Shown here piece by piece: positions 1-36,457 of a stretch of DNA of 64,000 nt; the stretch's first letter is position 1; each line of letters starts with the position of its first letter. Below the pieces are notes generated by a model. It had not been told where the DNA came from. It searched no databases and saw only the letters and a list, made by a program, of their open reading frames with translations. The position numbers were made by a program, and so were the translations under genes. The stretch comes from Thecamonas trahens ATCC 50062 (lineage: Eukaryota > Protista > Apusomonadida), in assembly GCF_000142905.1 (NCBI RefSeq), contig NW_013657637.1:202971-266970 (forward strand), written 5' to 3'.

Positions 1-1768
1 AGCTCAAAGAGGAGCAGAATGCGCTCAGCGGCATTCGGATGCAGGCCCGACGCCCCGAGCGCGAGGTTGAGTACAACGCCGAGCGCCAGGCTCGCCTCAT
101 ACACGTCCTTGGCAGCAGCGCCAAGCAGCGAGATGAGCCGGTCGACGACAACAATGACGACTAGCGAGCCGGCCGAGAGCGAGCCGGCGAGCTGGCGCGA
201 GGTAAACCACTCGGGCACACCGCCGGGCACCGGCGATGCAAAAAGATTCGCCACCCACGCCTTGGATGTGGACAAGAGCGCGACAACGCCCAACGCAAGA
301 TGGGCCGCCCGCTGCCGCAGCGGCGATGCCAGCGCGTGCGCCAGCGGGACCATCAGTGTCTCGATGTCGGTCCGCGCGTTGACGTAGCCGGCAAATGCAG
401 GCGCCCGCGAGAGCAGCACATGCAGCAGCGCAATAGGAACGTCGGCCTCGGCAGGCGCCACGGCAATATGGTCTGCGATCGCGTCATAGAGCACCGGAAA
501 CGCCGCCGCAGCTTGCCCGGCCTTTGGCGCCAGACTCGGATCCTCCACGCCCGGAAAGGCATCGATGAGGTCGGCGAGACCGGCGGTGACAGCACCTGTA
601 CTTGCCGGATCGCTTGCTAGGAGCAGCATCACCACCGCAGCGCGGGTGGCGAGTGGCGCCCACGCCCGCTGCGCGTCGCTGGTTTCGAGCAACGACGAGA
701 AAAACATGCCGAAGCCTGCGGCTGAGCTCTTCGCTGCAGCCTCGGCGTGCGTCACCGAGTCGGAGGCGTAAACAGTGAGGAGGGTGGCAAGGAGCCGGGC
801 AAACTGGGGCGGCGTCCACGCGGCGACAAGGGCAGCATGACGGGTGCGGAGGGCGGCGAGCGGGCGGGCAACAGTCTTGGCATCGACGTAGAGCGCGTCC
901 GAGACAAAGGCTATCAGGCAGGCGAGGAGCTCAAAGACGAGCTCGGCCATGGCCGCCGGCAGCGCAACCGGGAGCACCGGCCCGCCCATCCCGTCGAGGA
1001 CGGTGACCAGCAGCTGACCCACCCTCGCCATCCATGGAACGAGCAGCTCATCGGGGACGAGGACGACATCAGCCGCCGCCGCCGCCGCCACAAACGTCCG
1101 AATCAGCAGCAGCGCGTTGGTCAGCGTCGGTAGTGGCCGCGGCCGGACGTCAACCGCCACCCGCCGCCCGACCTCATCCATTAGCTCCTGCGCATACCCC
1201 ATCAGTGCCTGCATGTTGCCGGTCTTGCCGTTGTTCACCACTGATGCCATCGCCGAGCGAGTGAGTCCTACGCCCTTTTGCTGCATCACCTTTGCCGAGA
1301 CCCCAGCCAACACGAGCGGCTACCACCTGAAGAAGGACAATTAGCAAGGCACGGAAGGGCCTACAACATATATGGGACCAAGGTCATGTCGGGATGTGGA
1401 TGGGGTATCTGGGGCAACTGTATCCCACACGTGGTGTGCGGTGGAAGGTGGCGGTGGAAGGTGGCGTCGACGCGGTGATCATGATCAACGCCCGGCCGGG
1501 CACAAGGCATGTACGGTGGCCTGCTGCAGCGGCAGGCGAGGGGGACGGGGAGGTATGGGCATAGGGGGTACATACATATGTCGGCAGAAGCTCTTGCTAA
1601 GACGGTGGCGATGCCCTGCTCCCTCCGTATGCGTGACTCCTTCTCCATGTGGAAGGTCAGACCGTGGAGGTCGTCAAGCAGCTCACCGGCTCGACCACCT
1701 AGGGCAGTCTCACCACACACAGCATCGAGCAGGGCAATGTTGGCCTCCACAGATGTGTTGGCGCCCAT
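1..1768 (-). CDS. DYM: Dymeclin (Dyggve-Melchior-Clausen) family Golgi protein; 3' end runs off the window; intron 1241-1575
   Basis: Manual translation gives MGANTS (myristoylation-type N-terminus), LVNNGKTGNMQAL, TLTNALLLIRTF, PLATRAAVVMLLLAS and WFTSRQLAGSLSAGSLVVIVV...KDVYEASLALGVVLNL...GLHPNAAERILLLFEL, collinear with dymeclin motifs. GTATGT donor at 1575 and AG acceptor at 1241 keep the frame. Exon 2 is absent from the ORF track because it has no stop in the window. Confidence 0.8.
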
Positions 1769-2036
1769 TTGCCACAAAGTTTGTGCGCGGGAACGAGGGC
1801 AGAGGGGAGGAGGAGGAGGAGGAGGGAGGGGGGGGGGGGATCAGGGGGGAGGGAGAGGAGGCGGAGTACAGGGAGAAGGGTGACCGAGGGTGCGACCACG
1901 GTGACATGCCATTCGCCGCGGCAGGCAGGCAGGAGGAGGAGGTGGTGTCTGCATACCCCACTCCCCCCGTCTCTCTCTCTCTCCCCTCCCTCTCCCCCTC
2001 TGGCAGCCGCCGCATCTTTGCAAACGTTTGTGGGTC

Positions 2037-3800
2037 ATGGCGAGCCAGGGCGCGTGCGGGGGATGCGGCAAGGCCATTTACCCCTTTGACAAGGCCCATG
2101 AGGTCAAGGGCGTCCGCCTGCACGCCGGCTGCTTTGCCTGCACTTCCTGCAAGCGCATTCTCAAGCCGACCGGGAGATACGGCATTGTTGCTGGTCGCTA
2201 CTACTGCTCGCGTCATGCGCGGGAGGCCGAAGCTGCTGTTGGTGGTGGCGGTGGGGATGCTGGGGATGACACGCGCAAGCGGGCCACGTCCGAGGGCACC
2301 CCGTCGCCTGCGCGAGCGGCTGCCGCCCGCGACGCTTTAGCCCCTGTGGCGAGCGAAGCTGCAACGCCTTTGGCGAGTGGGCCGACAGGCGGCGGCAAGC
2401 GCCTGGCCGGACGTGATCGGATTGCGTCCGAGGGCACTCCGTCGCCATCACGAGTGGCTGCGGCACGGAGCGCGTTTGAGGGCGGATCCAGCGAGCCGCG
2501 GAAGTCGCGGCGGGCGACAGAGGGCGTGCCAAAGGCGTCGCGGGTAGCGGCGGCCAGGGCGGCGTTTGCTGGCGGCGATGTCGGGACTGACAAACCCAAG
2601 TCCAAGGTTAGCGCAGTCAAGGCTGCATCGGGGCGGGGGCGGCGGACCGCGTCCGAGGGCTCTCCGTCGACATCGCGCATGCAGGCTGCGCGCGCAGCGT
2701 TTGCAGGTGGCGTCCCGGCGCCACCATCTCCGAAGCGGGCGGCGCCACCGTCACCAACGCGGGCGGCGCCACCGTCACCAACGCGGGCGGCGCCACCGTC
2801 ACCAACGCGGGCGGCGCCACCGTCACCAACGCGGGCGGCGCCACCGTCACCAACGCGGGCGGCGCCACCGTCACCAACGCGGGCGGCGCCACCGTCGCCA
2901 ACGCGGACGGCACCACCGTCACCAACGCGGGCGGCGCCACCGTCACCAACGCGGGCGGCGCCCCCGTCACCAACGCGGGCGGCGCCACCGTCACCAACGC
3001 GGGCGGCGCCACCGTCACCAACGCAGACGGCGCCACCGTCACATCCTACCCCCCCACACGCTCCGGCTCCAGAGGTTCGCGGTCATCTTGTCACTCTTTG
3101 CCCGTCGTCCGAATACTGCCTATACGATCGTCCAATTCCGCTCGCGCCGGGATGGACCGACAACCCGTCGCGCGTCCTCTGGCTGCCGCAGTCCTCAGGC
3201 CACGCCTCGGTTGTCTGGGCCGGACCAGAGGCCCCCCGCCCCGCCAGGGTGCGAGCCCTCGCTGCTGCCCGTGCGTCCGGCACGCTTACCCCGCTGCTTG
3301 CCCACGCCGCCGATCTCGCGGCTGTGCTCGACACGCCGCTCGAGCTGCCGCCTGGCATCGATACCAACTCGCCCTCGCTAGTCAAAGCGACGCGATCACC
3401 AGGCGGTTCGTTTTCCTTTACCCGTGCGGCGCCCCTGGAGAGCCCACTGTGGACCCGCGCTGCGCTTGCTGCCGATGACGCCGTGTATGTCGCTGACGAC
3501 GGTCTCTTCTCGGCCTACATCTGGAAGGCCCCACGCGCAACGCTCTCACAGGCCGAGACCATTGCACTCACCGCTGCGCTGCAGGCCGGCGAACATGCGC
3601 CATGTCTTGCTGTCGCCCGCCCCTGGGCTCTGCACGTCACCGTGCTCGATGCAGGCTCGGAGAGCTCTCCATTCAAAGCGCTGTTTGTTGATTGGCACCC
3701 AGCTGTCACCGCCCTCGTCTCGGCGCTCGCTGATCCCGACGCACACCTTGCAGTCGCCGCCATGTTTCCGCCACGTGCCACCAAGAAAGCAATCGCCTAG
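2037..3800 (+). CDS. LIM-domain protein with short helical repeats, a PPSPTRAA tandem array and a C-terminal gelsolin-like domain
   Basis: CGGC...H..CFAC..C...YYC..H LIM pattern at the N-terminus. C-terminal VYVADDG...AYIWKAP...VTVLDAGSESSPFKALFVDW resembles a gelsolin/villin repeat. Confidence 0.7.
   Translation: MASQGACGGCGKAIYPFDKAHEVKGVRLHAGCFACTSCKRILKPTGRYGIVAGRYYCSRHAREAEAAVGGGGGDAGDDTRKRATSEGTPSPARAAAARDALAPVASEAATPLASGPTGGGKRLAGRDRIASEGTPSPSRVAAARSAFEGGSSEPRKSRRATEGVPKASRVAAARAAFAGGDVGTDKPKSKVSAVKAASGRGRRTASEGSPSTSRMQAARAAFAGGVPAPPSPKRAAPPSPTRAAPPSPTRAAPPSPTRAAPPSPTRAAPPSPTRAAPPSPTRAAPPSPTRTAPPSPTRAAPPSPTRAAPPSPTRAAPPSPTRAAPPSPTQTAPPSHPTPPHAPAPEVRGHLVTLCPSSEYCLYDRPIPLAPGWTDNPSRVLWLPQSSGHASVVWAGPEAPRPARVRALAAARASGTLTPLLAHAADLAAVLDTPLELPPGIDTNSPSLVKATRSPGGSFSFTRAAPLESPLWTRAALAADDAVYVADDGLFSAYIWKAPRATLSQAETIALTAALQAGEHAPCLAVARPWALHVTVLDAGSESSPFKALFVDWHPAVTALVSALADPDAHLAVAAMFPPRATKKAIA
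2721..3040 (+). repeat. Coding minisatellite, 24-bp unit (ccaccgtcaccaacgcgggcggcg) x13, encoding PPSPTRAA
   Basis: Near-identical tandem units are directly visible. Confidence 0.97.
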
Positions 3801-6800
3801 CCTCGCACAGGGCTCCACACACAGTACTCGCCGACGACCCTAAGCGCAGCCGCGTCGGCTTCGTCGAGCACGATGGACTCCACGTCAGCATCACCGGCCG
3901 CACGCGCATCCAGCACGTCATTGGAGACGCGCGCCGCCACGCCGGGGGCCGTCGCCAGCGTCACATGAGGCCGCCGTCCGGCATCCACCTCGATGCCGCC
4001 CAGCGCCACTGCCAAGCACACAATCCCGCGCCCGGCGACCAGCTCGACCGCATTCACCTCGACGCCATCAGCCAGTGCCGCGTTGGCAGTCTCGTCAAGT
4101 GCTCGGACATCACCCACCGTCGCCTCGGCGATGTACCGCAGCGTGACGTGGAACCCGATGCGTGCCCGGGCATCTGCGTCGGCCTCCAGCGCTGCACTGT
4201 CACCGCCGGCCGCCGCTACCGCGCGCGCCCACGCACTGTCTCCTGACGCCGTCGCGCGCCACGTGCACATTGCTCGGCTGAGCGTTGGAAGCGACAGCCC
4301 GGCAAACCGGAACCATGGCACAACGGCGGCGTTCACACGTGCGCTTCCGCCGTGAGTAACCCCGTCGACCACCGCACTCACAGCGACATCCAGCAGACCG
4401 TCTGCGTCGTAGATCCGCGAGTGCAGGCCACGGACCTCGTCGAGTGCACTTGCCAGCGCCGCAGCCTGCTCCCCCCACGAGAGGCCCGCCATCGGGTTGC
4501 CCTTGCGACGGCCGGAGAAAAGGTGCTTGATCGTCGCCAGCGGCTCGGCATACTCCGCGAGGGCGAGTTCGGCTTCGGCACTATCGCAGATCCCGAGCGA
4601 GACTACTTGCCCCCCAGCCGCCTCGGTTGCAGCCACCACCTTGTCGCCGTGCTTGTACTTGCCGTCACGGATCCTGCTGTGCAGCTTGCGGACGGCAGTG
4701 GTGTACTCGAGCCATGCTTCGCGCGACACTGTCGCCGCTTCCACCGAGCTCGCATCGCTGGCATGATCCGGCCGATCCAGCACGCCAAGGTACGCCAGTG
4801 CGTCCATGACCTCGTACCCACTCGGCGTGCTGGCCAGCCGTAAGACAAGCCAACTGGCATCGTGGATCAGCGATGATGCGCCGCGATTGTCGTACACCAG
4901 CACCGGCGTCTTGCCTGCCGCTCTTGCTGCATCCACTGCCTCGTTTGCCCGTCGTTTCAACTCGCGCGCCACCGTCGCGCGGCCCACCGTCGCCTGAATC
5001 TCATCGTTAGCGAGGACCGTCACAACGGCCTCCTCGCCGAGTGCCTCCTGCAAAGCAGGACAGAGCTTGGTGAGAAACGTTGTCTTGCCCACTCCTGGCT
5101 CACCCGGCACAATGACCCGGACCACCGTGGTGCCGCTTCCATCTTGTGCCGTGGAGCTTGCCATTAGATCGGGAGTAAAGTGTCGCAGCGGCGCCTTGCC
5201 ACAGTTGACCAGCAGCATCGGCGTCACAGTGCAAGGCGCGGCCATCCTGCCGCTGACACGCAGCACTTTGCCAATGTCGTCGTAATGGATGATCTGCTGC
5301 CAGCTGTCGTCGACCACACTTGCAGCCGCCAGATCGGCGAGTACCTCGGCCTTAAAGTTGAGCGCCGACTGCCGCGACGCCCGACGCGCAAAGACCGGCA
5401 CGCGGAGCGCGCCAGACTTGCCCAGGATCCGGTAAATAGGCCCGAGCTCCGACTGGATCCGCCCAGTCAAGACCAGGACAGGCGCACCTGCCGCCACCAC
5501 CCGCGAGAGCAGTGCAGGCATCGCCACACTCGCCGCCGCCGTCGTCTCATCAAACAGGGTGCCGTCAAAGTCAAAGACGTACACAACCTCGCCTGCGCCC
5601 GCAGCCACGCTCTCCGTCATCTGCATCCTGAGCGCCGCCAGCGACGCCCAGTTGGTGCCTGCGCCCAACGCACCGCTGCCCACCGCCGCCATTGCGGTTG
5701 TAGCAAGGACCGAGACCTCGCCCCCGGTCTCGAGCACAGCGCACACCTCGGCCGCCACCGCGACCACCAGCGCCGCGGCATCGGGGCCAGATACGCTCGC
5801 GCTGGCGCCGTCAGCCGTCACGCTACTCAGCACCGGAGGTGCGTGCTCGTAGAACGGCGCCACAACGTCGCCCACCCACTGGTGCACGACACGGGTCTGG
5901 GTCGGGTCTGCTCGCGGGACGAGCCCGATGCGGGCGCAGCAACCGAGGAAGAGCATGTGCGCATGCATCGATGATGGCAGCAGTCCTGGCCGCCGCATGT
6001 GACGCGTGAACGCCACAAGTGCGGTCCGGCGGGAGACGGTGTCAGCCTCAGAGCCCGCGGCTATCAGCGCCGCACGCACCGCCGTGTTGGCATCCATGAT
6101 TGTCCACGCCGACCCATCATACACGATGTCGACGAGGAGGCCTCCGGCAAACTCGAGAGCAAGGACCGGGAAGGCGGCGTCGGTGACGATGCGGCTTTGG
6201 AGGAGGTCGTCTCCAAAAGCCGCGGCAATTGCAGGCGCCAGCTCATCCAGAGGCGTGTTGGTCAGTAAGTCGATGTCGGACCCGACCGGGAGCGCTCCGC
6301 CGAGCACTGCAAACGAGCCAAATGGCCGCAGCGCCACGGGCGGCAAAGTGCTTGATGCCCACGCCTGTAGCCGCCGATAGCAAGCCAGTTGACCGGAATC
6401 TGGCCCTGCAAAGGCGACGTCGGCGACCAGCGCGTCGGCGGCGGCCGACGTCATCTCACGACAGACAAGATACATGCTCATGGCCTGAGCCCGGGTCAGT
6501 TGCGGCAGTACCCGGCCACATCGGGCCGGGTACGCAATCGACGGCGTGCGCAGGCCCGACGGGATGCTAAGCACAGCCCGGGCCAGCGAGAGCACATGCT
6601 TGATGCCTCCAGCTGCGAGGGCTTCGCGCGCAAACACGCGCGAGAGTGGCGGCAGCGGGGCCGCCGAGCCACTCGCAGCCGACATGCTCCGTGCCCACTT
6701 GACGATCGTGGTGACCACAACTGGCGGCATACCATCGAGGCGTGCGACATGGGCGTGAAGCGCCGAGTCGTCGAGGCAAATCAGAGCTGCGGCGTCGACG

Positions 6801-8194
6801 CGGTCGAGGGCACGACCGAGGTTAGCGACAGCGGCGCCAAGCCGGGCCGGGAGTACCGGGCCAAGATGACGGGCAACTCCGTGGGCGAGTAGATCCGGCG
6901 AAAGGCCGCGAACCGCAACCCCAACGTCACCGGCGAGCGCATGCAGCTGCGAGACGAGCAGGTCAGCGAGCAGCGCGTCGTGCGATGCCAAGCCGAGATC
7001 GTGAAGGGCGCACCACATGGCCGTCTTGACCTTGATCAGCAGCAGCGGCTCGCCAGCGGCCGACTCGACTGCAAGCACGCCACCCTCAAAGCCCGGCTCG
7101 CTCTCGGCCTCGATGGCGGCAACAACGTCGTCGACCTCGGCGGCAGGCGGCAGCGGTAGGCGCCGCGGGATGGGCAGCCCGATGCTGGACGCCACCGTCG
7201 CTACATTCAGCATGCGGTAGGCTGGTGGGTGGGCAACGGCGGCGATGAGATAAGCTGATGGCTTGTCGGCCGCGACCGTTGTTGTCAACTCGGGATGCCG
7301 CAACTCGATCACGTAGGTGACGCCCGGCTCGAGGCGAGCGGCGAGGGCGGGCAAGTCGACAGCTTCGCACAGCATACGGTGCATGGGATGCCCGTGGCGA
7401 AGAGTGGTCTTCTGTGACTCAATCAGCAGACCACTGTTGTCCGCCGCTCTGGGCGTCAGCTTGATGATGGCCCCATCCAGCTTCTCGCTCATGGCCACAC
7501 CCGCTCCGCCCAACACCGCCACTAGCGCTGACAGCGAGACCAAGCCCGGGCGGAGGTCAAAGAACTTGAGCAGTGGGAAGGAGAGCACAGAGGTAGCAGG
7601 ATTCGAATGTTCGGGCGAGTGGCTGAGAGCGGGGATGCCAGCGGCAGCCGTGGCCACCGGGTCGACGAGCAGATCATCGGCGCGACCACGGCCACTCCCA
7701 CTCCCACCCCCACCTTCTCCACCACCATGCTCATGCCCGACACGGACCTTGTGCCCGCGGACATGGGCCAGCCACGAGCCGTGGAAGGCGGCAGCGTTGG
7801 AGTATGCCACATGGGCCGTCCCGGACTCGCATCCGATGGCCGAGACCAGGAGGGCAGACTCAGCCAGTTGGGCCCGGAGCTCCCCGACGCCGGCGGCGTG
7901 TCGGGCGGCAGTGTCCAGAGCATCGATGACCGCCATCGGTTGGCGGGCAACTGCCACGGTGGCCAGAAAGGCAAGATCACCACGGAGCTCCTCTCCCATT
8001 CGCCCCGATCTCGCCATCCCGGCCATCGCCTTGGTCGTAGCCTCGGCTGTCTCATCCGCAAGCGACTCGGCCGCCGCCAGTGCCGCTACCAGTCGCGGCG
8101 ATGGGTTCGATTCGCTGCACAGAGGTCGCTGATTATGGCTACGAGCGCATCCGCCAGCCGAATGTCGGTCCCTGGACGGTCTTGGTGAGCGCAT
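3797..8194 (-). CDS. Multi-domain RNA repair enzyme: RNA ligase + Pol-beta nucleotidyltransferase + HAD phosphatase + P-loop kinase + 2H phosphodiesterase
   Basis: Ligase: LKFFD, SEKLDG, YVIEL, FEGGVL, IKVKT. NTase: FGS...GSDIDLL, LVDIV. HAD: VFDFDGTLF, LTGR, FK, HYDD. Kinase: GEPGVGKTT, VLVYDNR, VLDRPDH. 2H: FHVTL and PHVTLATAPGVAARVSN. Confidence 0.85.
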   Translation of the reverse strand: MRSPRPSRDRHSAGGCARSHNQRPLCSESNPSPRLVAALAAAESLADETAEATTKAMAGMARSGRMGEELRGDLAFLATVAVARQPMAVIDALDTAARHAAGVGELRAQLAESALLVSAIGCESGTAHVAYSNAAAFHGSWLAHVRGHKVRVGHEHGGGEGGGGSGSGRGRADDLLVDPVATAAAGIPALSHSPEHSNPATSVLSFPLLKFFDLRPGLVSLSALVAVLGGAGVAMSEKLDGAIIKLTPRAADNSGLLIESQKTTLRHGHPMHRMLCEAVDLPALAARLEPGVTYVIELRHPELTTTVAADKPSAYLIAAVAHPPAYRMLNVATVASSIGLPIPRRLPLPPAAEVDDVVAAIEAESEPGFEGGVLAVESAAGEPLLLIKVKTAMWCALHDLGLASHDALLADLLVSQLHALAGDVGVAVRGLSPDLLAHGVARHLGPVLPARLGAAVANLGRALDRVDAAALICLDDSALHAHVARLDGMPPVVVTTIVKWARSMSAASGSAAPLPPLSRVFAREALAAGGIKHVLSLARAVLSIPSGLRTPSIAYPARCGRVLPQLTRAQAMSMYLVCREMTSAAADALVADVAFAGPDSGQLACYRRLQAWASSTLPPVALRPFGSFAVLGGALPVGSDIDLLTNTPLDELAPAIAAAFGDDLLQSRIVTDAAFPVLALEFAGGLLVDIVYDGSAWTIMDANTAVRAALIAAGSEADTVSRRTALVAFTRHMRRPGLLPSSMHAHMLFLGCCARIGLVPRADPTQTRVVHQWVGDVVAPFYEHAPPVLSSVTADGASASVSGPDAAALVVAVAAEVCAVLETGGEVSVLATTAMAAVGSGALGAGTNWASLAALRMQMTESVAAGAGEVVYVFDFDGTLFDETTAAASVAMPALLSRVVAAGAPVLVLTGRIQSELGPIYRILGKSGALRVPVFARRASRQSALNFKAEVLADLAAASVVDDSWQQIIHYDDIGKVLRVSGRMAAPCTVTPMLLVNCGKAPLRHFTPDLMASSTAQDGSGTTVVRVIVPGEPGVGKTTFLTKLCPALQEALGEEAVVTVLANDEIQATVGRATVARELKRRANEAVDAARAAGKTPVLVYDNRGASSLIHDASWLVLRLASTPSGYEVMDALAYLGVLDRPDHASDASSVEAATVSREAWLEYTTAVRKLHSRIRDGKYKHGDKVVAATEAAGGQVVSLGICDSAEAELALAEYAEPLATIKHLFSGRRKGNPMAGLSWGEQAAALASALDEVRGLHSRIYDADGLLDVAVSAVVDGVTHGGSARVNAAVVPWFRFAGLSLPTLSRAMCTWRATASGDSAWARAVAAAGGDSAALEADADARARIGFHVTLRYIAEATVGDVRALDETANAALADGVEVNAVELVAGRGIVCLAVALGGIEVDAGRRPHVTLATAPGVAARVSNDVLDARAAGDADVESIVLDEADAAALRVVGEYCVWSPVRG

Positions 8195-8666
8195 GCCATG
8201 GCGAGTGCGGGAAAGAGAGCGGTGCTAGCTCGCGCCGCTATCGCTGTCGCTGTTGTTGTCGCTGTCGCTGGCATGACCACTGTCGATCGAAGCGATCGAA
8301 AGCTGTGTCGCACAGAACGGAAAAGAGATGGCGGAGAAGTTGGTGACTGCGATGGTTTAGAGAGGCGAGCCCGAGCTCATTTACTGTGGCCATGTCAGTC
8401 TCGCCGCCAGTCTTTGTGAGGGAGCGGGTGACAGGGGATGGTGGCAAGATCGATGACGGCATCAACACCTCGACCTGGAGCTGAGCCGAGAGTCGGTGGC
8501 GCTAGAGGGCGTCGGGCTAGAAGACGCCGCGCTCGGCGACAATGAGGTAGATGTCCCGGGCGAGGGTAAGAGACCGATAAGAGCCAGCCAGTGTATCACC
8601 AGGCTCCAATTTCCGGGGCTCGCGCATGGCTAGCGGCATGGCGCGGGTCGGGTACAGTTGCTGGGA

Positions 8667-10961
8667 TCAAGAGGTGATGGTGGGAGGAGCACCGAGGGAC
8701 TTGCGCTCGGTCATGGTTGTGGTGATTGCCTTGAGCCAGGGGGTGCGGTCGTGGGGCGAGTCGAAAACGAGGACGACGAGATCGCCGGGCGTTGCTGAGG
8801 AGCGGGAGCGGCGGACAGAGGCGGTATCCACCGAGGAAGCGGTGGCGGTGGAGATGAGCGGGGTGAGCGCGATGGAGTGTGGAAAAGTGTCCGAGATGAG
8901 CGGCGGGGTGTCGAGCAGGTGCATGGCGTCGAGATCGTGGGCGGCGGTGACGACACGTGTGGAGCGGATGCGCTTGCGCGAGACGATGACGAGAAGGCCG
9001 GCGAAGAGGTAGGCGTACTCTGTGCGGGGCTTGAGAATCGAGTTGGCCATAGTGTTGCGCTTGATGGCGGAGGGGACAATGACGCCGATGTTGAGCTCTC
9101 CCTCGGTGATAAAGTTGCGAATCTTGAGGTCGGGCGGGAGCAGACCATCGGGGTCTTCGAGGCCTTTGAAAAAGACATCGAGCTTGTTGAGGTTGTCGGC
9201 CGTCCGCTTCCACTCGTTGATGCGGGAGACAACGGTGCCGAGGTTGTCGGCCGTCTCGACGAGTGCGGCGTAGTCGACGTCGTTGGCAGCATCCATTTTG
9301 CGGAGAAGCTCGCGGAGGAGAAGCGGGTACTTGCAAAGGCGCTGGATGGGCTTGATAAGGAAGGAGCCGAGCGGGAGGCTCTTGGTTTTGGGATCCTCGA
9401 ACCGAGCTTGGAGAAAGGCGCGGAATTTCTTGGACGACGCTGTGAGGCTCTCTAGCGTGTTGAGCGCCCGCTCGTGGTTGGACGAGTACGGAGTGTAGAC
9501 GACAAGGATGCGGCGGAGCTTGTCAGAGAGGATGTCGCCGACGCGCTCCACCCATTTGCGCTCCTTCTGGCGCTTCTTGAACTGCAACCACATCTCGCGA
9601 TGGAGTGGAAGAATTTCCTCCACGTTGCCAAAGAGCGCGTCGAGGTCGTCGGCGGAAACAATGTCTAACTCGCGGAGCGGGGTGAGGAACTCGTCGATGA
9701 GGATGAGAAGGTCGAGGACGTATGCCTCCTCGGTTTGGATCATCTCGTAGATGACCTCCTGGCAGGCGAGCTGGTTCTTGGTGAAGCCTGAGATGTCGAG
9801 CGAGTGGTACTCTGCGTACTCACGGAAGTTCTTGGGCAGAGGGCCGCGCTTGGGCGCCGCGGCAAGTGCGCGCGACCGGCGTGCAGCGTTGGCAGCCCCG
9901 GTCTGGGCTGTGAGCATGGCTTTGTGCGTCCGCGATGGTAGGTCGGACGCGTTGCGTGCCACGGGGCGGGCCGGGCCAGCACCTGCACCAGAGGTCAGCA
10001 CCGCCGAGTCGCGCGCGGCGCGCACCTCTTTGCCCAGCTCGAGAACGTCGAGCGAGAACGCACGCCAGCAGGCGTCGTCGGCGGCGGGGCGGATGACGAT
10101 CTTGGCTTGCGAGACGGCCTTGGTCGACGCGGTCTTGAGCGCGCTGGCGAGTGCGTCGCCGTTGATACACATCGCACGCAGTGAGGCCATGAGCGTCTTG
10201 ACCGACGTGACCAGCGAGCGCAGGTTTGGCGCCACTTCTCCCGGGTTGCGCACCTTGATGGCGGCCAGGACTGGTCGGAGAGCAGCGGTGACGGCATCGA
10301 TCTCCGCCGCAAACGGCAGGCTTGCAAACGGCGTAGCGCGCGGCGGCACGCCGCCTGACGGCGCCGAGCCAATCGATCGCGACCGCGGGGTGCCACCCGA
10401 CTCGCGAAGCGAATCGACACGCGACGACGGCAGCTGCGAGGCCAACCCTGAGTCTGAGCCTGGGCGAGTTGACGAGGTTGGCGACGAGGTCGAGGATGCG
10501 GTCGACGACGGCGATGGGGCGCCCGCGAGTGACCTCCGATTTGCGCGCCAGTGATTCTCACAGACAGGACGGCCATTAGCCTCCATGTAACCAGCCACCA
10601 GCGAGGTCGAGCATTGCGGATGTGTGCAGCGGAAGTGATCGGGGAGAAAGGAGAAGCCGAGGGCCTTGACGTAGGTACCCAGCAGCGGTTCGTTGCAACC
10701 ACATTGACAATGAGGAATGTCATTGGCAGCCTCATAGCAGGAGCAGCACATGGCTGACGAGGTGAGCGCGAGCGGTCCGACCGAGACAGACGTCCGCTTG
10801 TTGGCCCCCACCTCGTAGAACCTCCGCCCCGCCAGTGTCTCTCCACAGCTGGCGCACACAAAGTGCTCCCGATGGAACCGAGCGCCAAGCACTCGGAGCG
10901 CCGTCAGGTCGTCCTCCTCCACCTCTTCACCACATCCAGGGCATGCATTGTCTTTCTCCAT
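8667..10961 (-). CDS. RhoGEF (DH-PH) with two N-terminal LIM domains and a central four-helix bundle
   Basis: Two LIM zinc-finger patterns. DH motifs QEVIYEMIQTEEAYVLDL, LFGNVEEI and LGSFLIKPIQRLCKYPLLLRELL. PH-like C-terminus (YAYLFAGLLVI...PWLKAI). Confidence 0.9.
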   Translation of the reverse strand: MEKDNACPGCGEEVEEDDLTALRVLGARFHREHFVCASCGETLAGRRFYEVGANKRTSVSVGPLALTSSAMCCSCYEAANDIPHCQCGCNEPLLGTYVKALGFSFLPDHFRCTHPQCSTSLVAGYMEANGRPVCENHWRANRRSLAGAPSPSSTASSTSSPTSSTRPGSDSGLASQLPSSRVDSLRESGGTPRSRSIGSAPSGGVPPRATPFASLPFAAEIDAVTAALRPVLAAIKVRNPGEVAPNLRSLVTSVKTLMASLRAMCINGDALASALKTASTKAVSQAKIVIRPAADDACWRAFSLDVLELGKEVRAARDSAVLTSGAGAGPARPVARNASDLPSRTHKAMLTAQTGAANAARRSRALAAAPKRGPLPKNFREYAEYHSLDISGFTKNQLACQEVIYEMIQTEEAYVLDLLILIDEFLTPLRELDIVSADDLDALFGNVEEILPLHREMWLQFKKRQKERKWVERVGDILSDKLRRILVVYTPYSSNHERALNTLESLTASSKKFRAFLQARFEDPKTKSLPLGSFLIKPIQRLCKYPLLLRELLRKMDAANDVDYAALVETADNLGTVVSRINEWKRTADNLNKLDVFFKGLEDPDGLLPPDLKIRNFITEGELNIGVIVPSAIKRNTMANSILKPRTEYAYLFAGLLVIVSRKRIRSTRVVTAAHDLDAMHLLDTPPLISDTFPHSIALTPLISTATASSVDTASVRRSRSSATPGDLVVLVFDSPHDRTPWLKAITTTMTERKSLGAPPTITS

Positions 10962-10973
10962 AATGATATGTAT

Positions 10974-10974
<1 letters not shown>

Positions 10975-11050
<76 letters not shown>
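10975..11050. repeat. (GT)n microsatellite just upstream of the RhoGEF start
   Basis: Directly visible. Confidence 0.95.
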
Positions 11051-11224
11051 GGGAGGGAGGGAGAGGTGTCTACTGCCGTGCACGCCGTGCTGACGTGCCG
11101 GCAGTCAGGTTTTCGGCAAACGACTTTGCTTGCACGCCCTGCCGGTTCCGGCACAGTAGTGACAAGCACGAACCACGAGCAGAATGATATGCGCAAGCAG
11201 GGGGGGGGGGGGGGGGGTGTACTG

Positions 11225-13345
11225 TCACCGCTCTGTGGCAACGCCGAAAAGATCAAGGCCAAGGAGGAAGATATGGAGCGGGATGAGCGAGATGAGCATG
11301 GCGTAGAAAAGGACGCTGTTGGCCAGGATGACCACCGAGATGAGAAAGCCAAAGGTGATGAGGTGAAAGAGGAGGATGATGGCGCGAAAGAGCGTCGAGG
11401 TGGACATGTACACATGCGGGTGCTGGACGGTGAGCGGTGGGTTGTTGATGGCCTCAGCAAGCTTAGCGAGCACAATGGTGAGCGGGAGCATCATCCAGAT
11501 GAGCGACCGCGATTTGGAGGTGACAACGAGGACAGTCTCGTGGCGGGGATCGTCATCAAGAGGGTCATCATCAAACTCTGATGCTCGCTCACGGACACCG
11601 TGCGCCTCGACCAGGCTCGGCGTCCAAAAGCCAAATGTGAGGAGAAAGAGCCGCTTGAGTGAGCCGACGACGAGGATGAACGGAACAAAGCAGCACGCAC
11701 CTGAGATGTTGCTCGACGGGCGTCCGGAGAAGAGGACAAGAAGAACGATGAAGCAGAGCGTGAGGATGGCAATGTTGGCAAAGAACATGACGTCCGCCAT
11801 CTGCTTGTCCAGCGGTGAGCACGTTCGCTCGATCGACCACATGCCGAGAAAGACCTGGGGCATGATGAGCACAATGAGCTGGATGATGTAGAAGAGGACA
11901 GCCTGGAGGAGGGCAGAGATGGCCTGGAAAATGAGCGCACCCGTCCGTCCGCTGCACGGCCGAAGCGAGACCAGCTTGATGGCCACAAACAAGAGCAAGT
12001 CATGGTGAAGAATGACGACAAACGCAGCCATGAACGCCGCAAGGAGCCACGGAAACGCCAGCAGTAGCGTCCCGCCGCAGTTCCACACCAGCACCTCGGC
12101 AGTGAGCGAGTTGAAGTACGCCAGAAGCGCATCGACCGAGAACAAGATGGGAGCTAGGTTGCCGAGCGGGACTACATCGGTAATGTCGCCAATTGATGGC
12201 AGTGAGCCGACGTAGAGCGAGAGCGAGCCGTGGATGAGCTGGAGGTTGATGAGGAGCCGGATAGCGTCAAAGACTAAAAAGATGAGCCGGAGGACAACAA
12301 GGACAGCATAGCCGACAGCAGACGTCTCGCGACGGCGCTCGGCGTACTTGATCGCGGCGTCGGTCGGGCGAGAGGCGTCGAGTCGGCTGCCGCCTCCGCC
12401 GCTGCCGATAGCCGCCGAGGCGTGTCCGCCTGCCGTTCCGCCGCCGTCACCGGTCCGCGCGCCAAAGAAGCCACCGGCCAGCGTACCGACACCGCGCTCG
12501 GCGACGGTTCGCTTGGAGCGGTCGGCATTGTCGTCGTCCGAGTAGTACGCCTGCGAGTACGAGCCGTCGTCCGATTCGGGCGCCCATGGTGCAATGGCAC
12601 CGTTCGGAGGCGGCGCGGAGTCCATCGGTGAGCAGAGCGTCGGATACCACGCATGCTTCCGCTGCTGATGAAAGAGGACCAACGCAAAGCACAGCAGGAG
12701 CACGGCACCCACCCCCGCAGCAATAGTCCCAGTCGAGTCGTCGATCCGCTGATGGAGCGAGAACGGCACGTGTGGCGCAGGGAGGACAGCAGATGGCGCC
12801 ATGTCGATCCACGCCGCAATGTACAGCCATCGATTACCAGACGAGGGCAAGCCCGAGTCGACGACAACCTCTACAAGATAAGAGTCATTGCTCGGCAGTA
12901 CGCTGCTCAAAGACATTCCGATGCGGCTGGCAGAGCCCCCCGGGTAGGAGACGGTGTGAACAAGGCCGGTCGAGTTGGCATGGGACGATCCGTTTGAAGG
13001 AGCGACGAGAGGCGCGTCGTCCCATGCCAGAGCCAGAGCCATCGATTGAATGAGAATGGCCGAAGAGAGTGGCTTTTCCAGCGAGAAGCGAACAACGACT
13101 TGCGAGTTGGTCGACGAGGTCAAGAGCCGGGCCGAGGCGAAGCTGCCTGACGCCGTTGGCGCGAGTTCACCAGCTGAGGTCACCGCATTGCGGACCTCAC
13201 CGAGAGCCGTTTCCCCTCCCAACAGGGTCGCGGGGAGGGCGAGGAGGATGAGCAGTGCGGCGAGGGTGGTGGGGGCGGTGACATGGGGATGAGGTGGTGA
13301 GGTGGGGGGAGGGGGGGGAGGTACTGTGAATCGGAGAGAGCTCAA
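11225..13345 (-). CDS. Uncharacterised multi-pass membrane protein; 5' end unresolved, possibly the last exon of the upstream gene
   Basis: Long ORF with one TM, a low-complexity loop and about 7-8 further hydrophobic segments. The ORF-track start is TTG, not ATG. Confidence 0.6.
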   Translation of the reverse strand: MSSLRFTVPPPPPPTSPPHPHVTAPTTLAALLILLALPATLLGGETALGEVRNAVTSAGELAPTASGSFASARLLTSSTNSQVVVRFSLEKPLSSAILIQSMALALAWDDAPLVAPSNGSSHANSTGLVHTVSYPGGSASRIGMSLSSVLPSNDSYLVEVVVDSGLPSSGNRWLYIAAWIDMAPSAVLPAPHVPFSLHQRIDDSTGTIAAGVGAVLLLCFALVLFHQQRKHAWYPTLCSPMDSAPPPNGAIAPWAPESDDGSYSQAYYSDDDNADRSKRTVAERGVGTLAGGFFGARTGDGGGTAGGHASAAIGSGGGGSRLDASRPTDAAIKYAERRRETSAVGYAVLVVLRLIFLVFDAIRLLINLQLIHGSLSLYVGSLPSIGDITDVVPLGNLAPILFSVDALLAYFNSLTAEVLVWNCGGTLLLAFPWLLAAFMAAFVVILHHDLLLFVAIKLVSLRPCSGRTGALIFQAISALLQAVLFYIIQLIVLIMPQVFLGMWSIERTCSPLDKQMADVMFFANIAILTLCFIVLLVLFSGRPSSNISGACCFVPFILVVGSLKRLFLLTFGFWTPSLVEAHGVRERASEFDDDPLDDDPRHETVLVVTSKSRSLIWMMLPLTIVLAKLAEAINNPPLTVQHPHVYMSTSTLFRAIILLFHLITFGFLISVVILANSVLFYAMLISLIPLHIFLLGLDLFGVATER

Positions 13346-13387
13346 GGGCCAGGGCTTTGGGGCTGGGCTGACTTTACCACGCTCTAC

Positions 13388-16092
13388 TTACGAGATGGTG
13401 ACGCGGGCAGTGGCAGGCGGCGAGATGGTAGTGGTGGCCGTGACGTAGTTGTAGACGACGGTGGCGATGGTAGAGGTCGAGGCGGCCGAGGTCGACGAGT
13501 AGCCAAGGGTGGTGGCAAACGAGTGCGGGACGACAAGCATGATGGTGCCTGTGACCGGGGTGGAGACAGCGCCGGTCGCCGAGTTGATGGTGGTGCCGTC
13601 GAGGGTGGCATCAACGTGGATCATGTTGGCAGTGGGGACGGCCCACGGCGAGTAGAGGGCAGAGAGCTTGGCGTTGAGGTCGGCCTGAGTGGTGGTGACC
13701 GTGACAAAGCGCTCGTCGGCCGAGAGGGGGAGGGCCGAGAGGAAGAACGAGCCGGACGGGACGTCGGTGGTGCCGGTGAAGAGACCGGCATGGACGATGG
13801 CGACCTTGGTGGTACCGGCGGGTGCGGCAGGCGCGGCGGCGGCGAGGCGGTCGGCGACGAGGCGGCCGACGTTGGTCTCCATCGAGCCGGCGTTGGCAAA
13901 GTCGAGGGCGGCGTCGGTGGAGCCAGCGGTGGCGGCGAGGTGGTCGGTGAAGGCGGTGGCGCCGGCGGCGAGCGCCGACTCGACGCCAGCGAGAGCGGGC
14001 GCCGGGGCGACGGCGGCGTAAGGCACGGGCATGCCGGTGAACATCGACGGGGCCTCGCGGCGGATGGTCATGTCGAGGCCAGAGAGGTAGTTGTTACCAC
14101 CCGAGGTCGAGAGAACAGCCTTGCCGTTGGCGGCCGAGTAGCCGTAGGCAAACGAGTTGCCCTGGACCACCACATGGGCCGGGAGCTTGGTCGGGGTCGA
14201 TGACGAGACCGAGGTCAGCTTGGCGTTGTCGGCCGAGGTCTGGTGGGTGACGGCCACAAGAATGTCGTAGTCGGCAGCGTGGGCGTCGGCAATGCGGGTG
14301 ATGGCCACCGCCGGGTCCTCCCAGGCAAGCGCAGCCACGTTGGGGTTGGAGACAAGGCCGACAACGCCAAAACGGATCCCGTCGGCGGTGACGACGACAA
14401 AGTCCGAGGTCGAGTCCAGCGCCATGCCGTCGGACGTCTTCTTGATGTTGGAGAGGACCCACGCGAGCGAGCCGGTCGAGGCGGCGGTCGCGGTCTTGGC
14501 CGAGACGGCAAAGAGCGCCTCGAGCTCTGCAGGCGACGACGCGAGCTTGAGGTCGTTCATGCCAGGCGTGGCCACAATGCGCGAGCCGTTGCCCGCTGCC
14601 ATGGCCGCCAGCGCGTTGTTGATGGCAGAGCCGCGGACAGCGGACGAGGCCGAGGTGGTGGTGAGGAAGAAAGCGTCACCGGCAAAGGCAGTGAATGTCT
14701 TGGACATATCGTGCGCTTCTCCGTTTGCCACCATGCCTCCGATGTACTGCAGCTTGCTCTCCGTTGACACGTCCGAGAATGCCAGCAGCTGGACATTGGC
14801 CACGCCCTGGGCCAGGATCTGCATCGGCGTCAGTTTGGCCATCATGGCCTCGTCGCGGTTGACCTGCTCGAGGTCGAGCACCTTGTTGTACACCACAGTC
14901 CAGCCCACAATAAACAGCACGCCAAACACAAGTGCAGCCACAAACATCAGGCCCTGGTTGAGTGTGGGGCCTGGCAATCGAACGCGTGGCGATGGTGGTG
15001 AGTGGCGGTTTTGATCAGTGGGGAAAAAAAGGTGTGGCGGGGCGGGGGGAGGGGAAAGTGGGGAGGGGGTGGTGAGGGGGTGGGGCGGGGGGGGGGGTGG
15101 GGGAGGCGTATGCAAGATGNNNNNNNNNNNNNNNNNNNNNNNNNNNNNNNNNNNNNNNNNNNNNNNNNNNNNNNNNNNNNNNNNNNNNNNNNNNNNNNNN
15201 NNNNNNNNNNNNNNNNNNNNNNNNNNNNNNNNNNNNNNNNNNNNNNNNNNNNNNNNNNNNNNNNNNNNNNNNNNNNNNNNNNNNNNNNNNNNNNNNNNNN
15301 NNNNNNNNNNNNNNNNNNNNNNNNNNNNNNNNNNNNNNNNNNNNNNNNNNNNNNNNNNNNNNNNNNNNNNNNNNNNNNNNNNNNNNNNNNNNNNNNNNNN
15401 NNNNNNNNNNNNNNNNNNNNNNNNNNNNNNNNNNNNNNNNNNNNNNNNNNNNNNNNNNNNNNNNNNNNNNNNNNNNNNNNNNNNNNNNNNNNNNNNNNNN
15501 NNNNNNNNNNNNNNNNNNNNNNNNNNNNNNNNNNNNNNNNNNNNNNNNNNNNNNNNNNNNNNNNNNNNNNNNNNNNNNNNNNNNNNNNNNNNNNNNNNNN
15601 NNNNNNNNNNNNNNNNNNNNNAGGGGAAGGGGGACGGGGGGAGGGGGGGGGGCGGGCAGCAGCCTGCCGTTTGACGGCCTTTTGCTGGACGCGGGTTGAT
15701 CAGGCGCAGGCCCAGGACGCAGCGCAGGGTGTGGGGCAAGGGGGCAGGGTGTGTGTGTGCGAGGGGTACGGGGGCGCGGGGGGGGGATGTGGAAAACGTA
15801 CCCTCTTCCTCCTCATCTTCAGCGGCTTCCATCTCGCGGCGCTTCTCCTCCTGGAAGGCAGCGCGGCGGGCCTCCTTCTCCTCGGCCTCACGGCGGGCGG
15901 CATCGAGGGCCAGCTCCTCCACAAGACCGTCGACAGTCACAGCGAGGTCGTCAAGGCGTGTGCCCAGTTCAAGGTCACGCTCGCGGCTATGTAGGGAGGG
16001 ATGGGGGAGGGATGGGGTGAGTGTGGGGGGATGTGGAAGAGGAAGAGAGGGAGAGGGAAGGGTGTGTGTGCGTGTGCTACGTACCCAGACAT
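13388..16092 (-). CDS. Membrane-anchored 5'-nucleotidase/apyrase-like (calcineurin-like metallophosphoesterase + 5'-NT C-domain) protein with degenerate active site; exons 16092-16085, 15986-15802, 14970-13388
   Basis: LLAFSDV, FAGDAF, TPGMND, GIRFGVVGL, ILVAVTH, VVVQGNS, ETNVGRLVAD and ISPPATARVT are collinear with CD73/UshA-type enzymes. GTACGT donors and AG acceptors are phase-compatible. An extra exon could be hidden in the gap. Confidence 0.65.
15120..15621. other. Assembly gap (N)
   Basis: N run, inside a predicted intron. Confidence 1.
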
Positions 16093-24881: not shown

Positions 24882-26507
24882 TCAGTTGCACGAAGCTGCG
24901 GTCGAGGCTGAGCACCTGCCCGCGCATGCAGAAGCAGGAGAGGTTCCATCGAGCTCGCAGAACGAAGTGAGCTTGGTGGAGAGTGCGTCGAGTTCGTGGC
25001 GGAGGACGGGTGGCATGTCAGCAGGGGTGATGGCGTCGATGGCGTCGAGGACCGCGGACGGCGAGGTAGAGATGGCCGACGTAGCTTGGGCACGGAGCGG
25101 GCAGTTGCGCGGAAAGGCAAGGAGGACGAGGACAAAAATGTGGGCAGGGGTGAGGGTGAACAATCCGGGATGTGACGTGCTCGAGTCGAGGCTGGTGGCT
25201 GGAAGCGCGTCGGCGGCGAGGGCAAAGATAGGGAGGTCGGCGATGGCGGACGCGAGCTCGCGGCAGTAGTCAGCAAGGGCACGGGCTCCCGGCACGGTTG
25301 GATCCGGTGGGGCGGCGGCTACGCCGAGGGCAGACCAGAGCCTGGTCTCCAGCGTGGCGGCTGAGGCAATGGCATCGTGGATAGAGCACGACGAGCTGCA
25401 GTGTTGCGAGAAGGTCGGGATGAGATCGGCGAGGTCAGCGAGGACACCGACGAGCTGCGAGCTGCTCTTGACTCGGCACAGCGACGCGAGCGGAGCGTCG
25501 CTGGACGACTTGGCAAGCACCATCCAGCCGCGCGGGCGGGCTGTGGCCGGATCGAGCGAGCATGCCATGGCAGCGGCAACAAGCGGAAGCGGGGCCCAAT
25601 GCGGCGGGTGCTTGAAGCGGGCGACGTCAAGAATGAGAACCGAGTCGGAGGAGGCATGGTAGCCCCCGATAGGCGAAAAGTGACCGGTTCCGGTCTGGCC
25701 AAGCCCGCTGCGGTCGTATGCAATGACCAGCGCCGAGCCTGCCGGCTCTCGCACTGACCTGATGACATCTGCACGAAAGGCGTCTTCCGAGAACTCGTCT
25801 TCATCAGCGCGGCAGGCCGTCACCACCTCGAGCGCATTGCATTTTGCGAGGCAGGCGAACTCATCGAACGAGATGCCTTCTTCCTTGATCTTGTCGAGGG
25901 CTGGAGGGGTGAAGGGGTGAGGGTGAGGGTGAGTGAGAGGGAGGGGGAGGAGTGGGGGGTGGGGGGTGGGGGGAGGATGATGTGTGTGGTGATGGGGGGT
26001 GGGGGAAGATGATATGTGTGGTGATGGGGGTGATGATGATGATGATGATGGTCATCTTCATGATGACCATCATCACCACTACGATGACCTTCTCCATGAT
26101 GGCCATCCCCACCATGACCATCTCCATGATGCTCATCCCCACCATGACCATCTCCATGATGCTCATCCCCACCATGATCTTCTCCATGATGGCCATCCCC
26201 ACCATGACCGGGGGTGATATTGATGAGGCGTACGCTTGCAGCAATCCAGCAGCTCCTCATCATACCATCGCCATACACCCTTCCACACTCTCTTGGGATC
26301 GACAGCAAGAGCATTGAGAACCATGACCAGAGTGCCCAAGCCACAGAAGGCTGGCTCAGCCTGGGTGGTGAACTGCTCCACTAAGGAGAAGAAGACCTCC
26401 ATATTGCCCTCGGACAGAGCCTCAGCAAACATCTTCCTCCCACGGACAGACGAGAACGCCACACACGTCTCCGGCAGAGGTCGTCGGTAGAACGACGTGT
26501 CATTCAT
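24882..26507 (-). CDS. PCS: Phytochelatin synthase; intron 25901-26233
   Basis: [30 protein letters not shown] (Cys), [30 protein letters not shown] (His), [14 protein letters not shown] (Asp). Splicing gives [15 protein letters not shown]. Confidence 0.95.
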
Positions 26508-26869
26508 ACGTGCTGCTGATGGCTGCTCTCGATGGCTGTTGGTAGTGGGCGTTGCGTCAAGTGGTTGCTGGTGTGCCCGTGGCTGTGACCCGACACGGTC
26601 ACTCGGCGCCTGTCCAACTCGTCTTGTCGCTCCATGGCCTACCTGCTGCTCAATCGGCTGCATCCTACCACGGGTCACCTTTGGATACCGACGCGGATCT
26701 GCTTCTAACGCCTTGCTCTGACATCGCTCATCATCTCGCTTCCGGTTCACGCTGCCGATGAAATCAACAACGTGGCAGTCGCCATACGGAGGTCGCCTGG
26801 TCGCCGCCGATCTGTTTCGTCGCTAATGTGTGGATGGCTGGGTTAGGGGGAAAGAGGGAGGGAAGAGTA

Positions 26870-35361: not shown

Positions 35362-36457
35362 TGCATTTGCCCTCACCCTGGCACCGCGCCCTTTTGCCTC
35401 GCACCTCTGCGCACCCAGTACGACTTCCCCGTTGTACGTGCACTCTCCCCATGCGTAAAGGTAGCCGATTTTGCGCACATCTCTTGGGCGATTCTTGTTT
35501 ATTTTCCACCTCACTCTTATACTCCACTTCTATCGACCCCACGCCTCCCCAACGCTCACGCCTATTCCTCACTCTGCGCGATCCGACCCTCACGCTACTG
35601 ACTGGTGTAGAGAATGTGGCTTGCACTCGCCACTTTGCAGTGTTCATGAGTCACGAGGGCATACAGCAGGGAGGCGGAGGGGTAATAGAAGAGAAGATAG
35701 GCAGAGCAAATTGGGAAGGCACAAAAATGGCGGACGACCGGGACACTATACCGCTACAGCCAACATCATCGCGCGGCAACCGCGCTGCCCGGCCCCCCAC
35801 CGGCGGCGCAGTATACTTAACGACCACACTTGTCTGGAGACCCGGCGGGAGCTCTACGTGCCACACACCAGTCCCTCCTCTCGCCAACCTCCCTCCCCCC
35901 CTCTCCCCCTCTCCACTTCACCCACACCCGGCCTTGTCTGCCCCCCCCTGCGGCGGTCTCTGGGTGGCGACGAACAAGGGAAAAAATTCTCGTCGGGACG
36001 ACAAACCGTACGTTCCTCCCCCCCCTTTCAATCAATGACTCGATGTATTTTCGCCATGCTGCCGTCTGCCAGCTGGCGGCTTCCCGTCCCGCCTTTCCCC
36101 ACCCCCTCCCCCCCCCCCGCCCCTGTCTTGCCCTCCCGCTACCACCAGCCAGCCTGCACACCAACACGAGCCTTCCTCCTATACTCTAGCTGTTGCCTCT
36201 TTTGTCACCGTCTTTGGGTCCTCTTTCGCATCTCCTCCTTCCCTCTGCCCCCCCCCCACGCCCCCATCCCTCGCCCCCTACTGCGGTTGTCTTTACCCCG
36301 GAAAGCTGGTCGCTCCAGCGTGGATCGTTGGTGGCAGCGCTCGCAGCCCGGCTGGCGAGTGGCCTCGCGCAACTTTTTGATTCGTCCACCCCCCACCCGC
36401 GTACGGTCACTCACCTCCTCTCCTTCCTCTCCCCTTTTGTCTCCAGAACCAAGCGTC

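Follow-up and report, generated by a model that had tools for sequence, protein, structure and literature searches.

A conserved single-chain protein of Thecamonas trahens with five predicted enzyme domains likely to heal and seal RNA ends

Within a 64,000-nucleotide stretch of the genome of Thecamonas trahens ATCC 50062 (contig NW_013657637.1, positions 202,971 to 266,970 of the forward strand; hereafter the window), a single stop-free frame of 1465 codons runs on the minus strand from 8194 to 3797 as the window letters stand. T. trahens is a single-celled marine, free-living, bacteria-eating apusomonad flagellate. The frame encodes a conserved single-chain protein (P0001) with five predicted enzyme domains, in order an ATP-dependent RNA ligase, a Pol-beta nucleotidyltransferase, a HAD phosphatase, a P-loop kinase, and a 2H phosphoesterase. 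Judged from its sequence, this protein likely heals both ends of an RNA break, probably refills lost nucleotides, and seals the break with T4-type chemistry, a reading that we hold with somewhat better than even confidence. In such a route, the predicted 2H domain would open the cyclic phosphate, the HAD would take off the phosphate, the kinase would phosphorylate the 5'-OH, the transferase would refill nucleotides, and the ligase would seal the break. Because the junction would carry no 2'-phosphate, the route could do without a Tpt1 step. The least certain part of this proposal concerns the substrates, which are likely to be tRNA or rRNA that ribotoxins or stress nucleases have cut.

The initial annotation, made from the letters of the window, had described an uninterrupted frame of 1465 residues, the five domains in this order on a single chain, and a role in healing and sealing RNA ends. 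The frame is indeed free of stops; the domain calls and their order are supported by motifs, by the homologue P0003, and by profile and fold comparisons of uneven strength; and the proposed role remains the best reading of the sequence.

A rare, conserved family

Among 7989 scored candidates of comparable length, two proteins passed the threshold of E <= 0.001. One is the NCBI model AMSG_08675 of T. trahens ATCC 50062 (P0002, 2169 aa), inside which the protein search found the identical protein sequence. The other, P0003, is an ENA metagenomic/environmental protein of 1422 aa, which shares 36% identity over 97% of the query and represents a cluster of five near-identical members. P0003 has no RhoGEF part and thus stands alone; because it keeps all five motif sets in the same order, the five-domain architecture is conserved. 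With an overall identity of 36–41%, the two full-length proteins have the same catalytic-type residues throughout the ligase, transferase, and 2H domains, and in the HAD they retain DxDxT, T, and K. An unindexed HMMER search with residues 230–1429 as the query against 1,835,955,588 representatives returned three matches at E <= 0.001, namely AMSG_08675, P0003, and P0008, a fragment of 165 aa (Logan) that matches the kinase only (E 5.8e-10). The last residues of P0008 diverge from the other members, which could reflect an intron or a contig-level break. As judged from these comparisons, the family is real, conserved, and rare in these collections.

Searches beyond these members found no related loci in metagenome contigs (0/595 and 0/593 pattern matches), viral contigs (0/22 and 0/70), or phage records, and no shorter homologues of the C-terminal part among 7994 candidates. 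An N-terminal profile gave no new homologue among 7985 candidates and also missed P0003, so this search was insensitive. Whole P0003 had no usable match in the ESM Atlas, and a PDB sequence search with the protein, the alignments, or the domains gave chance or P-loop-only matches.

A ligase with T4 Rnl1-like signatures

All motifs listed in the initial annotation were found where it had placed them (Table 1), and they exceed chance because all of them recur in order in P0003. Two modules extend beyond the limits first given: the ligase begins near residue 100 (~7900), and the kinase fold reaches approximately residue 1283 (4346). When residues 70–420 were compared with ESM Atlas clusters, the best matches scored 0.97, 0.96, and 0.96, with PF09511 (RNA_lig_T4_1) on 38–73% of the cluster members. 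The 0.97 match has 214 of 256 features in common, and the ten best named matches are all in the PF09511 family or clan. These look-alike clusters are 63–80% viral where taxa are known, which by itself is no sign of transfer.

A phage Rnl1 profile built from 24 of 42 loci aligned to the P0001/P0003 pair with an hhalign E of 7.7e-5 and a score of 46.6, and none of 100 locally shuffled alignments scored as high (maximum 22.9). The KFF motif, KxDG, the motif Ia Lys, the motif III Glu, EG, KxK, and then a W..LH pattern fall in register with phage Rnl1. The features of the Rnl1 family (PF09511), i.e., motifs I, Ia, III, IV, and V together with the Arg, Lys, and Phe of the N-terminal subdomain, are thus all present, at a level below hmmscan detection; pairwise BLASTP to T4 Rnl1 was not significant. 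A Gly-rich insert at approximately aa 150–195 of the ligase is absent in P0003.

The initial annotation had proposed a Trl1 scaffold with two inserted enzymes. The domain order and the kinase-type motifs agree with this proposal, whereas the ligase, with KxDG, W..LH after motif V, and no Arg at the Trl1 spacing, probably does not. Motif I reads EKLDG here and EKVDG in P0003 rather than the KxNG of Trl1 (PMC6379707). The spacing of 28 residues between K210 and K238 equals that between K120 and K148 of Chaetomium Trl1 (PMC6379707). The preference of Trl1 for a 2'-phosphate depends on R334/R337, and T4 Rnl1 failed to join a 2'-phosphate end (PMC12440814); by gapless spacing only, neither this protein nor P0003 has an Arg 9 or 12 residues past the second motif V lysine. 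Support for the Rnl1-type call from these sequence comparisons is good, and the ligase is likely, although not proven to be, T4-Rnl1-like (KxDG) rather than Trl1-like (KxNG).

The transferase, HAD, kinase, and 2H domains

The predicted transferase has the Pol-beta signature hG[GS]..DxD and a third Asp on a palm fold of the TUTase/poly(A) polymerase group. RNA 3'-terminal transferases occupy all of the first 15 VIA rows and rank ahead of DNA polymerases mu and lambda. With a low-confidence model, we regard the call of a TUTase/poly(A)-polymerase-like transferase as moderate. Motifs outside the assigned active sites are also strongly kept between this protein and P0003, at ~6530–6495 and 6105–5830 on the minus strand (YPARCGR-LPQL, W-IMDAN, PSSMH-HM, and H-WVGD-VAPF), and these are possibly nucleotide-recognition parts of the transferase.

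All four HAD motifs are present. Motifs I and II sit 35 residues apart, leaving no room for a cap, so the HAD is likely capless, and by its motifs it is of the DxDxT Pnkp type; in P0003, the first Asp of motif IV is replaced by Glu. HADs of the capless kind have macromolecules as substrates. The domain matched TIGR01484 below the cut-off (E 2.5e-5 and 3.3e-5) and the polynucleotide kinase family phrog_415 with E of 0.01 and 0.048. Against a profile of T4 Pnkp, for which 7 of 21 loci were used, hhalign gave a score of 24.9 with all four motifs aligned, compared with a maximum of 21.7 in 100 shuffles; pairwise BLASTP to T4 Pnkp was not significant. We grade the DxDxT HAD call from sequence as moderate to weak.

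The kinase fold belongs to a class that includes RNA kinases. The P-loop, the downstream Asp (D1064), and the lid Arg/His (R1141/H1144) match elements named for the Candida Trl1 kinase (PMC5728400), and the motifs ND[ED], YDN, and RPDH are kept in all three homologues. A viral fold library returned generic kinases. The call of a P-loop NMP (nucleoside monophosphate)/polynucleotide-kinase fold, made on a low-confidence model, is moderate. One row of the viral library, a lead only, was BFVD entry A0A6N1NT89, a Tupanvirus protein of 797 aa annotated as a T4-type RNA ligase; its weak similarity to the kinase half (E 0.01) may point to giant-virus proteins in which a ligase and a kinase are fused.

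The 2H call is the weakest of the five and rests mainly on motifs. The two HVTL motifs lie 61 and 70 residues apart in the two full-length proteins, and two shared H-hydrophobic-T/S-hydrophobic motifs arose in 3 of 2000 column shuffles. The region matched Pfam LigT_PEase at E 0.014, below the cut-off, and its model has a predicted local distance difference test score (pLDDT) of ~30.

Table 1. Features of the repair gene in the window (aa, residues of the 1465-codon frame)
Feature	Coordinates	Strand	Residues and remarks	Motif coordinates
Whole open reading frame (ORF)	3797..8194	-	1465 codons in the window letters; full-length homologue P0003; true start probably ~8199 or a downstream Met (8026, 8017, 7999)	
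Base missing from window	8113..8114	.	Relative to three sequencing runs; shifts first 27 codons; adjoins splice acceptor implied by NCBI model	
Predicted ATP-dependent RNA ligase adenylyltransferase domain, Rnl1 type	6995..7897	-	~aa 100-400; ESM Atlas, hhalign; R146, K210-F211, motif I K238, Ia K262, III E297, IV E370, V K388/K390	KFFD 7567-7556; EKLDG 7486-7472; YVIEL 7315-7301; FEGGVL 7090-7073; IKVKT 7036-7022
Predicted helical region, likely ligase C-domain and linker	6425..6994	-	~aa 401-590; conserved YPARCGR-LPQL; weak extension of Rnl1 alignment	
Predicted Pol-beta nucleotidyltransferase palm	6107..6412	-	aa 595-696; G626-S627, D640, D642, D689; TUTase/non-canonical poly(A) polymerase-like	FGSF 6322-6311; SDID 6280-6269; LVDIV 6136-6122
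Conserved region, likely helical part of transferase	5615..6106	-	~aa 697-860; inferred; matches no family	
Predicted HAD phosphatase, DxDxT type	5225..5593	-	~aa 868-990; D875, D877, T879, T910, K948, D972/D973	DFDGT 5572-5558; LTGR 5470-5459; K948 near 5353; YDD near 5280
Predicted P-loop kinase, NMP/polynucleotide-kinase fold	4346..5137	-	~aa 1020-1283; GVGKTT, D1064, D1102, lid-like R1141..H1144	GEPGVGKTT 5104-5078
Predicted 2H phosphoesterase	3800..4327	-	~aa 1290-1465; H1349-x-T, H1410-x-T; motifs kept in P0003	HVTL 4150-4139 and 3967-3956

Relation to known RNA repair systems

T4-Rnl1 ligase signatures fit a phosphate-removing HAD. The presence of the HAD would make sense if the ligase required a 2'-OH/3'-OH end; T4 Rnl1 refuses a 2'-phosphate end. 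A pathway from 2H through HAD, kinase, and transferase to ligase has been described for separate phage proteins (PMC7824862), and each of the five predicted domains here corresponds to one of its steps. The refilling step also has a parallel in RlaP (PF10127), a Pol-beta transferase that is found beside an RNA ligase and can replace lost nucleotides ahead of the sealing step. RNA 3'-OH ends were extended by RlaP with one or two nucleotides, and its gap filling before T4 Rnl1 ligation partly restored in vitro charging of a tRNA missing one nucleotide (PMC12776372). RlaP is described as a protein on its own, found mostly in bacteria or phages, whereas the transferase here is part of a fusion and has fold matches indicating the TUTase/poly(A) polymerase group.

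With phage T4 Rnl1 and Pnkp (PseT), the protein shares Rnl1-type motifs in register, a capless DxDxT HAD, a P-loop kinase, and predicted 2'-OH/3'-OH sealing. In contrast to the T4 pair, it is one chain in a cellular eukaryote, the HAD precedes the kinase (the kinase comes first in Pnkp), and a 2H domain and a Pol-beta transferase are added. With fungal and plant Trl1/AtRNL it shares the Rnl1-like N-terminal subdomain, a P-loop, a downstream Asp, and a lid-like Arg/His in the predicted kinase, and the arrangement of a ligase, a P-loop kinase, and a 2H cyclic phosphodiesterase in that order on a single chain, the last recognized by its motifs. It differs from Trl1/AtRNL in approximately 450 extra residues (transferase and HAD) between the ligase and the kinase, in KxDG versus KxNG, in having no Arg at the R334/R337 spacing when compared without gaps, and in the predicted dispensability of Tpt1; no Trl1 Pfam model was matched by this protein. 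Our best reading of the sequence is that the protein works like Trl1 or like the T4 heal-and-seal system with an added refilling step, and we do not class it as Trl1 because motif I is not that of Trl1.

Eukaryotic "Swiss army knife" RNA repair proteins are sporadic multi-domain proteins that bundle end-healing, transferase, and ligase modules. The present protein resembles them in concept; none of HAD_SAK_1 (PF10307), HAD_SAK_2 (PF18143), and 2H-SAK (PF22547) was matched by either full-length protein or by domain pieces (hmmscan, E <= 1 or 5). Small SAK profiles with 4 and 1 phage members scored no higher than shuffles did and were uninformative; of the four HAD frames used, two may be mis-cut. 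"Swiss-army-knife" also denotes a HAD family that goes back to Burroughs and Aravind 2016, as well as the three Pfam families above.

Fused repair enzymes are a known kind, represented by Trl1 and AtRNL (PMC3400036), Clostridium Pnkp (PMC2190708), and, by the title of a cited reference, a baculovirus ligase-kinase-phosphatase enzyme. The repair modules are split in Mucorales (PMC11571804), and Naegleria has many candidate ligases (PMC4408790). The five-domain order was not found described in the literature searched, which did not contain the accession numbers of the protein either; "Thecamonas" was absent among the literature matches listed. The survey of Burroughs and Aravind 2016 or its supplements may show this order. 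The combination is apparently new, and its novelty is unproven.

Weighing the functional readings

Several observations weigh against the healing-refilling-sealing reading. All five domains stayed below the curated cut-offs of Pfam and NCBIfam. The Rnl1 alignment weakens to E 0.0064 when P0003 serves as master, and HMMER/hmmsearch with the same phage Rnl1 profile was not significant; nor was HMMER with the same Pnkp profile. The ThpR-type 2H profile (75 of 80 ThpR loci plus 2 phage 2H proteins) lands on the 2H region with a score of 13.5, which 83 of 100 shuffles equaled or exceeded. The missing arginines of the ligase are not decisive because the Trl1 of plants likewise has none of the fungal arginines, although it has been described as the stricter enzyme with regard to the 2'-phosphate (PMC12440814); for this reason, the Rnl1-like assignment falls short of proof. 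Adenylate kinases, PSTK, and Kti12 match the kinase fold equally well, the first lid Arg of Trl1 is Gly in both this protein and P0003, the G-loop is not assignable, and P0003 has Arg for the P-loop Lys. Both structure models are poor (mean pLDDT 33 and 43), and no PDB Foldseek match was found at E < 0.001. A fold check had been suggested for each segment: it gave matches for the transferase and the kinase, and none for the ligase, HAD, and 2H regions, where the models are too poor to judge. Finally, strain differences in an estuary metagenome run (X3; 10 synonymous and 12 non-synonymous, 22 used after one upstream of a frame error was excluded) leave every listed catalytic residue unchanged and give no sign of purifying selection (p 0.05–0.19).

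The alternative that best withstands these data is a housekeeping tRNA-splicing ligase equivalent to Trl1, in which the HAD replaces Tpt1 and the transferase does separate tailing or quality control. The Trl1 order of ligase, kinase, and 2H, the Trl1-like kinase motifs, and the position of the gene among ordinary cellular genes are in line with such an enzyme. We nevertheless consider it improbable given that only the protein itself, P0003, and P0008 were matched in the large HMMER search, that the clusters resembling the ligase are predominantly viral where taxa are known, and that motif I is not KxNG.

Next in rank, and also unlikely in our judgment, is a protein with some inactive modules, in which the P-loop domain would be a Kti12/PSTK-like tRNA-binding or regulatory NTPase and RNA ends would be healed or tailed for decay rather than re-joined. 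The ranking of PSTK, adenylate kinases, and Kti12 as the closest fold matches of the kinase, the Lys-to-Arg change in the P-loop of P0003, and the resemblance of the transferase to TUTases, which mark RNA for decay, speak for such a protein. Against it stand the unchanged catalytic-type residues in the ligase, transferase, and 2H domains of the two otherwise divergent full-length proteins, the retention of DxDxT, T, and K in the HAD, and the P-loop Lys kept in P0008.

That the protein acts on DNA ends or small nucleotides rather than RNA seems very improbable: DxDxT phosphatases and P-loop kinases heal DNA ends too and the kinase fold ties with NMP kinases, whereas the ligase matches the RNA-ligase family PF09511 and the transferase is closer to RNA terminal transferases than to DNA polymerases mu and lambda.

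Gene model and genomic surroundings

Four public runs were compared over 3000–11500: X1 and X2 (one sample), X3, and X8, the last without cover at 8113. Three of the four (X1, X2, and X3) carry one additional base after 8113 and another after 8208. With these bases added, the reading frame is open from near 8237; starting at the first ATG, near 8199, it encodes a protein of 1467 aa, with further Met codons downstream. The first 27 codons of the window ORF are probably in the wrong frame because the window lacks the base after 8113, and the ATG at 8194, which the extra base puts out of frame, was rejected as the start. None of the five domains is touched by this correction. Small insertions in the public runs relative to the window also occur at 8208–8209, 28043, 28757, and 30907, which suggests that indel errors are scattered through this assembly and may disrupt further gene models.

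AMSG_08675 joins the repair gene to an upstream LIM and RhoGEF gene (8667–10961, minus strand, with its own stop) through an intron from 8700 to 8115 inferred from the sequence of the model. The public model itself and the GT at 8700 and AG at 8115, at the implied intron ends, would accord with the ORF being the C-terminal part of a LIM-RhoGEF fusion protein of 2169 aa, which we regard as highly unlikely. P0003 and its four cluster members stand alone, the RhoGEF frame is closed by a separate stop at 8667, and P0003 stays with the window frame to the stop where AMSG_08675 departs from it. Moreover, because the implied acceptor adjoins the missing base, the intron may merely step over an assembly error. 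The fusion was therefore rejected, and AMSG_08675 probably mis-joins the two genes as a prediction artefact. Contigs of X1, X2, and X8 span the ORF and none skips 8115–8700; a control stretch was patchy and without splice joints, so these contigs are uninformative on transcription.

The neighbors are ordinary cellular genes, encoding a LIM protein, the LIM-RhoGEF, an ankyrin protein, phytochelatin synthase, signal recognition particle receptor beta, 5'-nucleotidase, a protein kinase, and a RasGEF. Given these neighbors and a guanine-plus-cytosine content of 0.61–0.70 across 1–14000, a mobile or viral island was rejected. The LIM-domain ORF (2028–3800, plus strand; Pfam E 7.9e-9) contains approximately 12 tandem Pro-rich repeats, and its stop codon overlaps that of the repair gene, tail to tail. 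Phytochelatin synthase is found in two minus-strand ORFs (26163–26750 and 24882–25826, covering Pfam positions 1–88 and 118–210), probably because of an intron. Two long plus-strand ORFs, at ~41050–49199 and 35471–38251, resemble talin and Sin3 by eye.

Significance

AMSG_08675 carries a RhoGEF name and its Pfam matches are to RhoGEF and LIM only, so the repair protein is easily missed. Ribotoxins that remove nucleotides after cutting (RloC and PaOrf2) are believed to make simple re-ligation futile. Repair by refilling and then sealing has been demonstrated in vitro with the separate protein RlaP and T4 Rnl1, and a fused version would place the whole route in one testable protein. More tentatively, and with doubts that outweigh our confidence, we propose a eukaryotic one-chain enzyme that would insert untemplated nucleotides at RNA breaks by means of a TUTase-type transferase and a virus-like Rnl1 ligase, serving either as a Tpt1-independent antidote to nucleotide-excising ribotoxins or as a self-contained insertional RNA editing enzyme. 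The protein could also serve as a one-enzyme reagent for converting and ligating mixed RNA ends. If the healing-refilling-sealing reading is true, T. trahens would be a eukaryote that combines Tpt1-free chemistry of the T4 type with the domain order of a Trl1-like enzyme, a finding relevant to the way in which the tRNA ligases of eukaryotes were put together.

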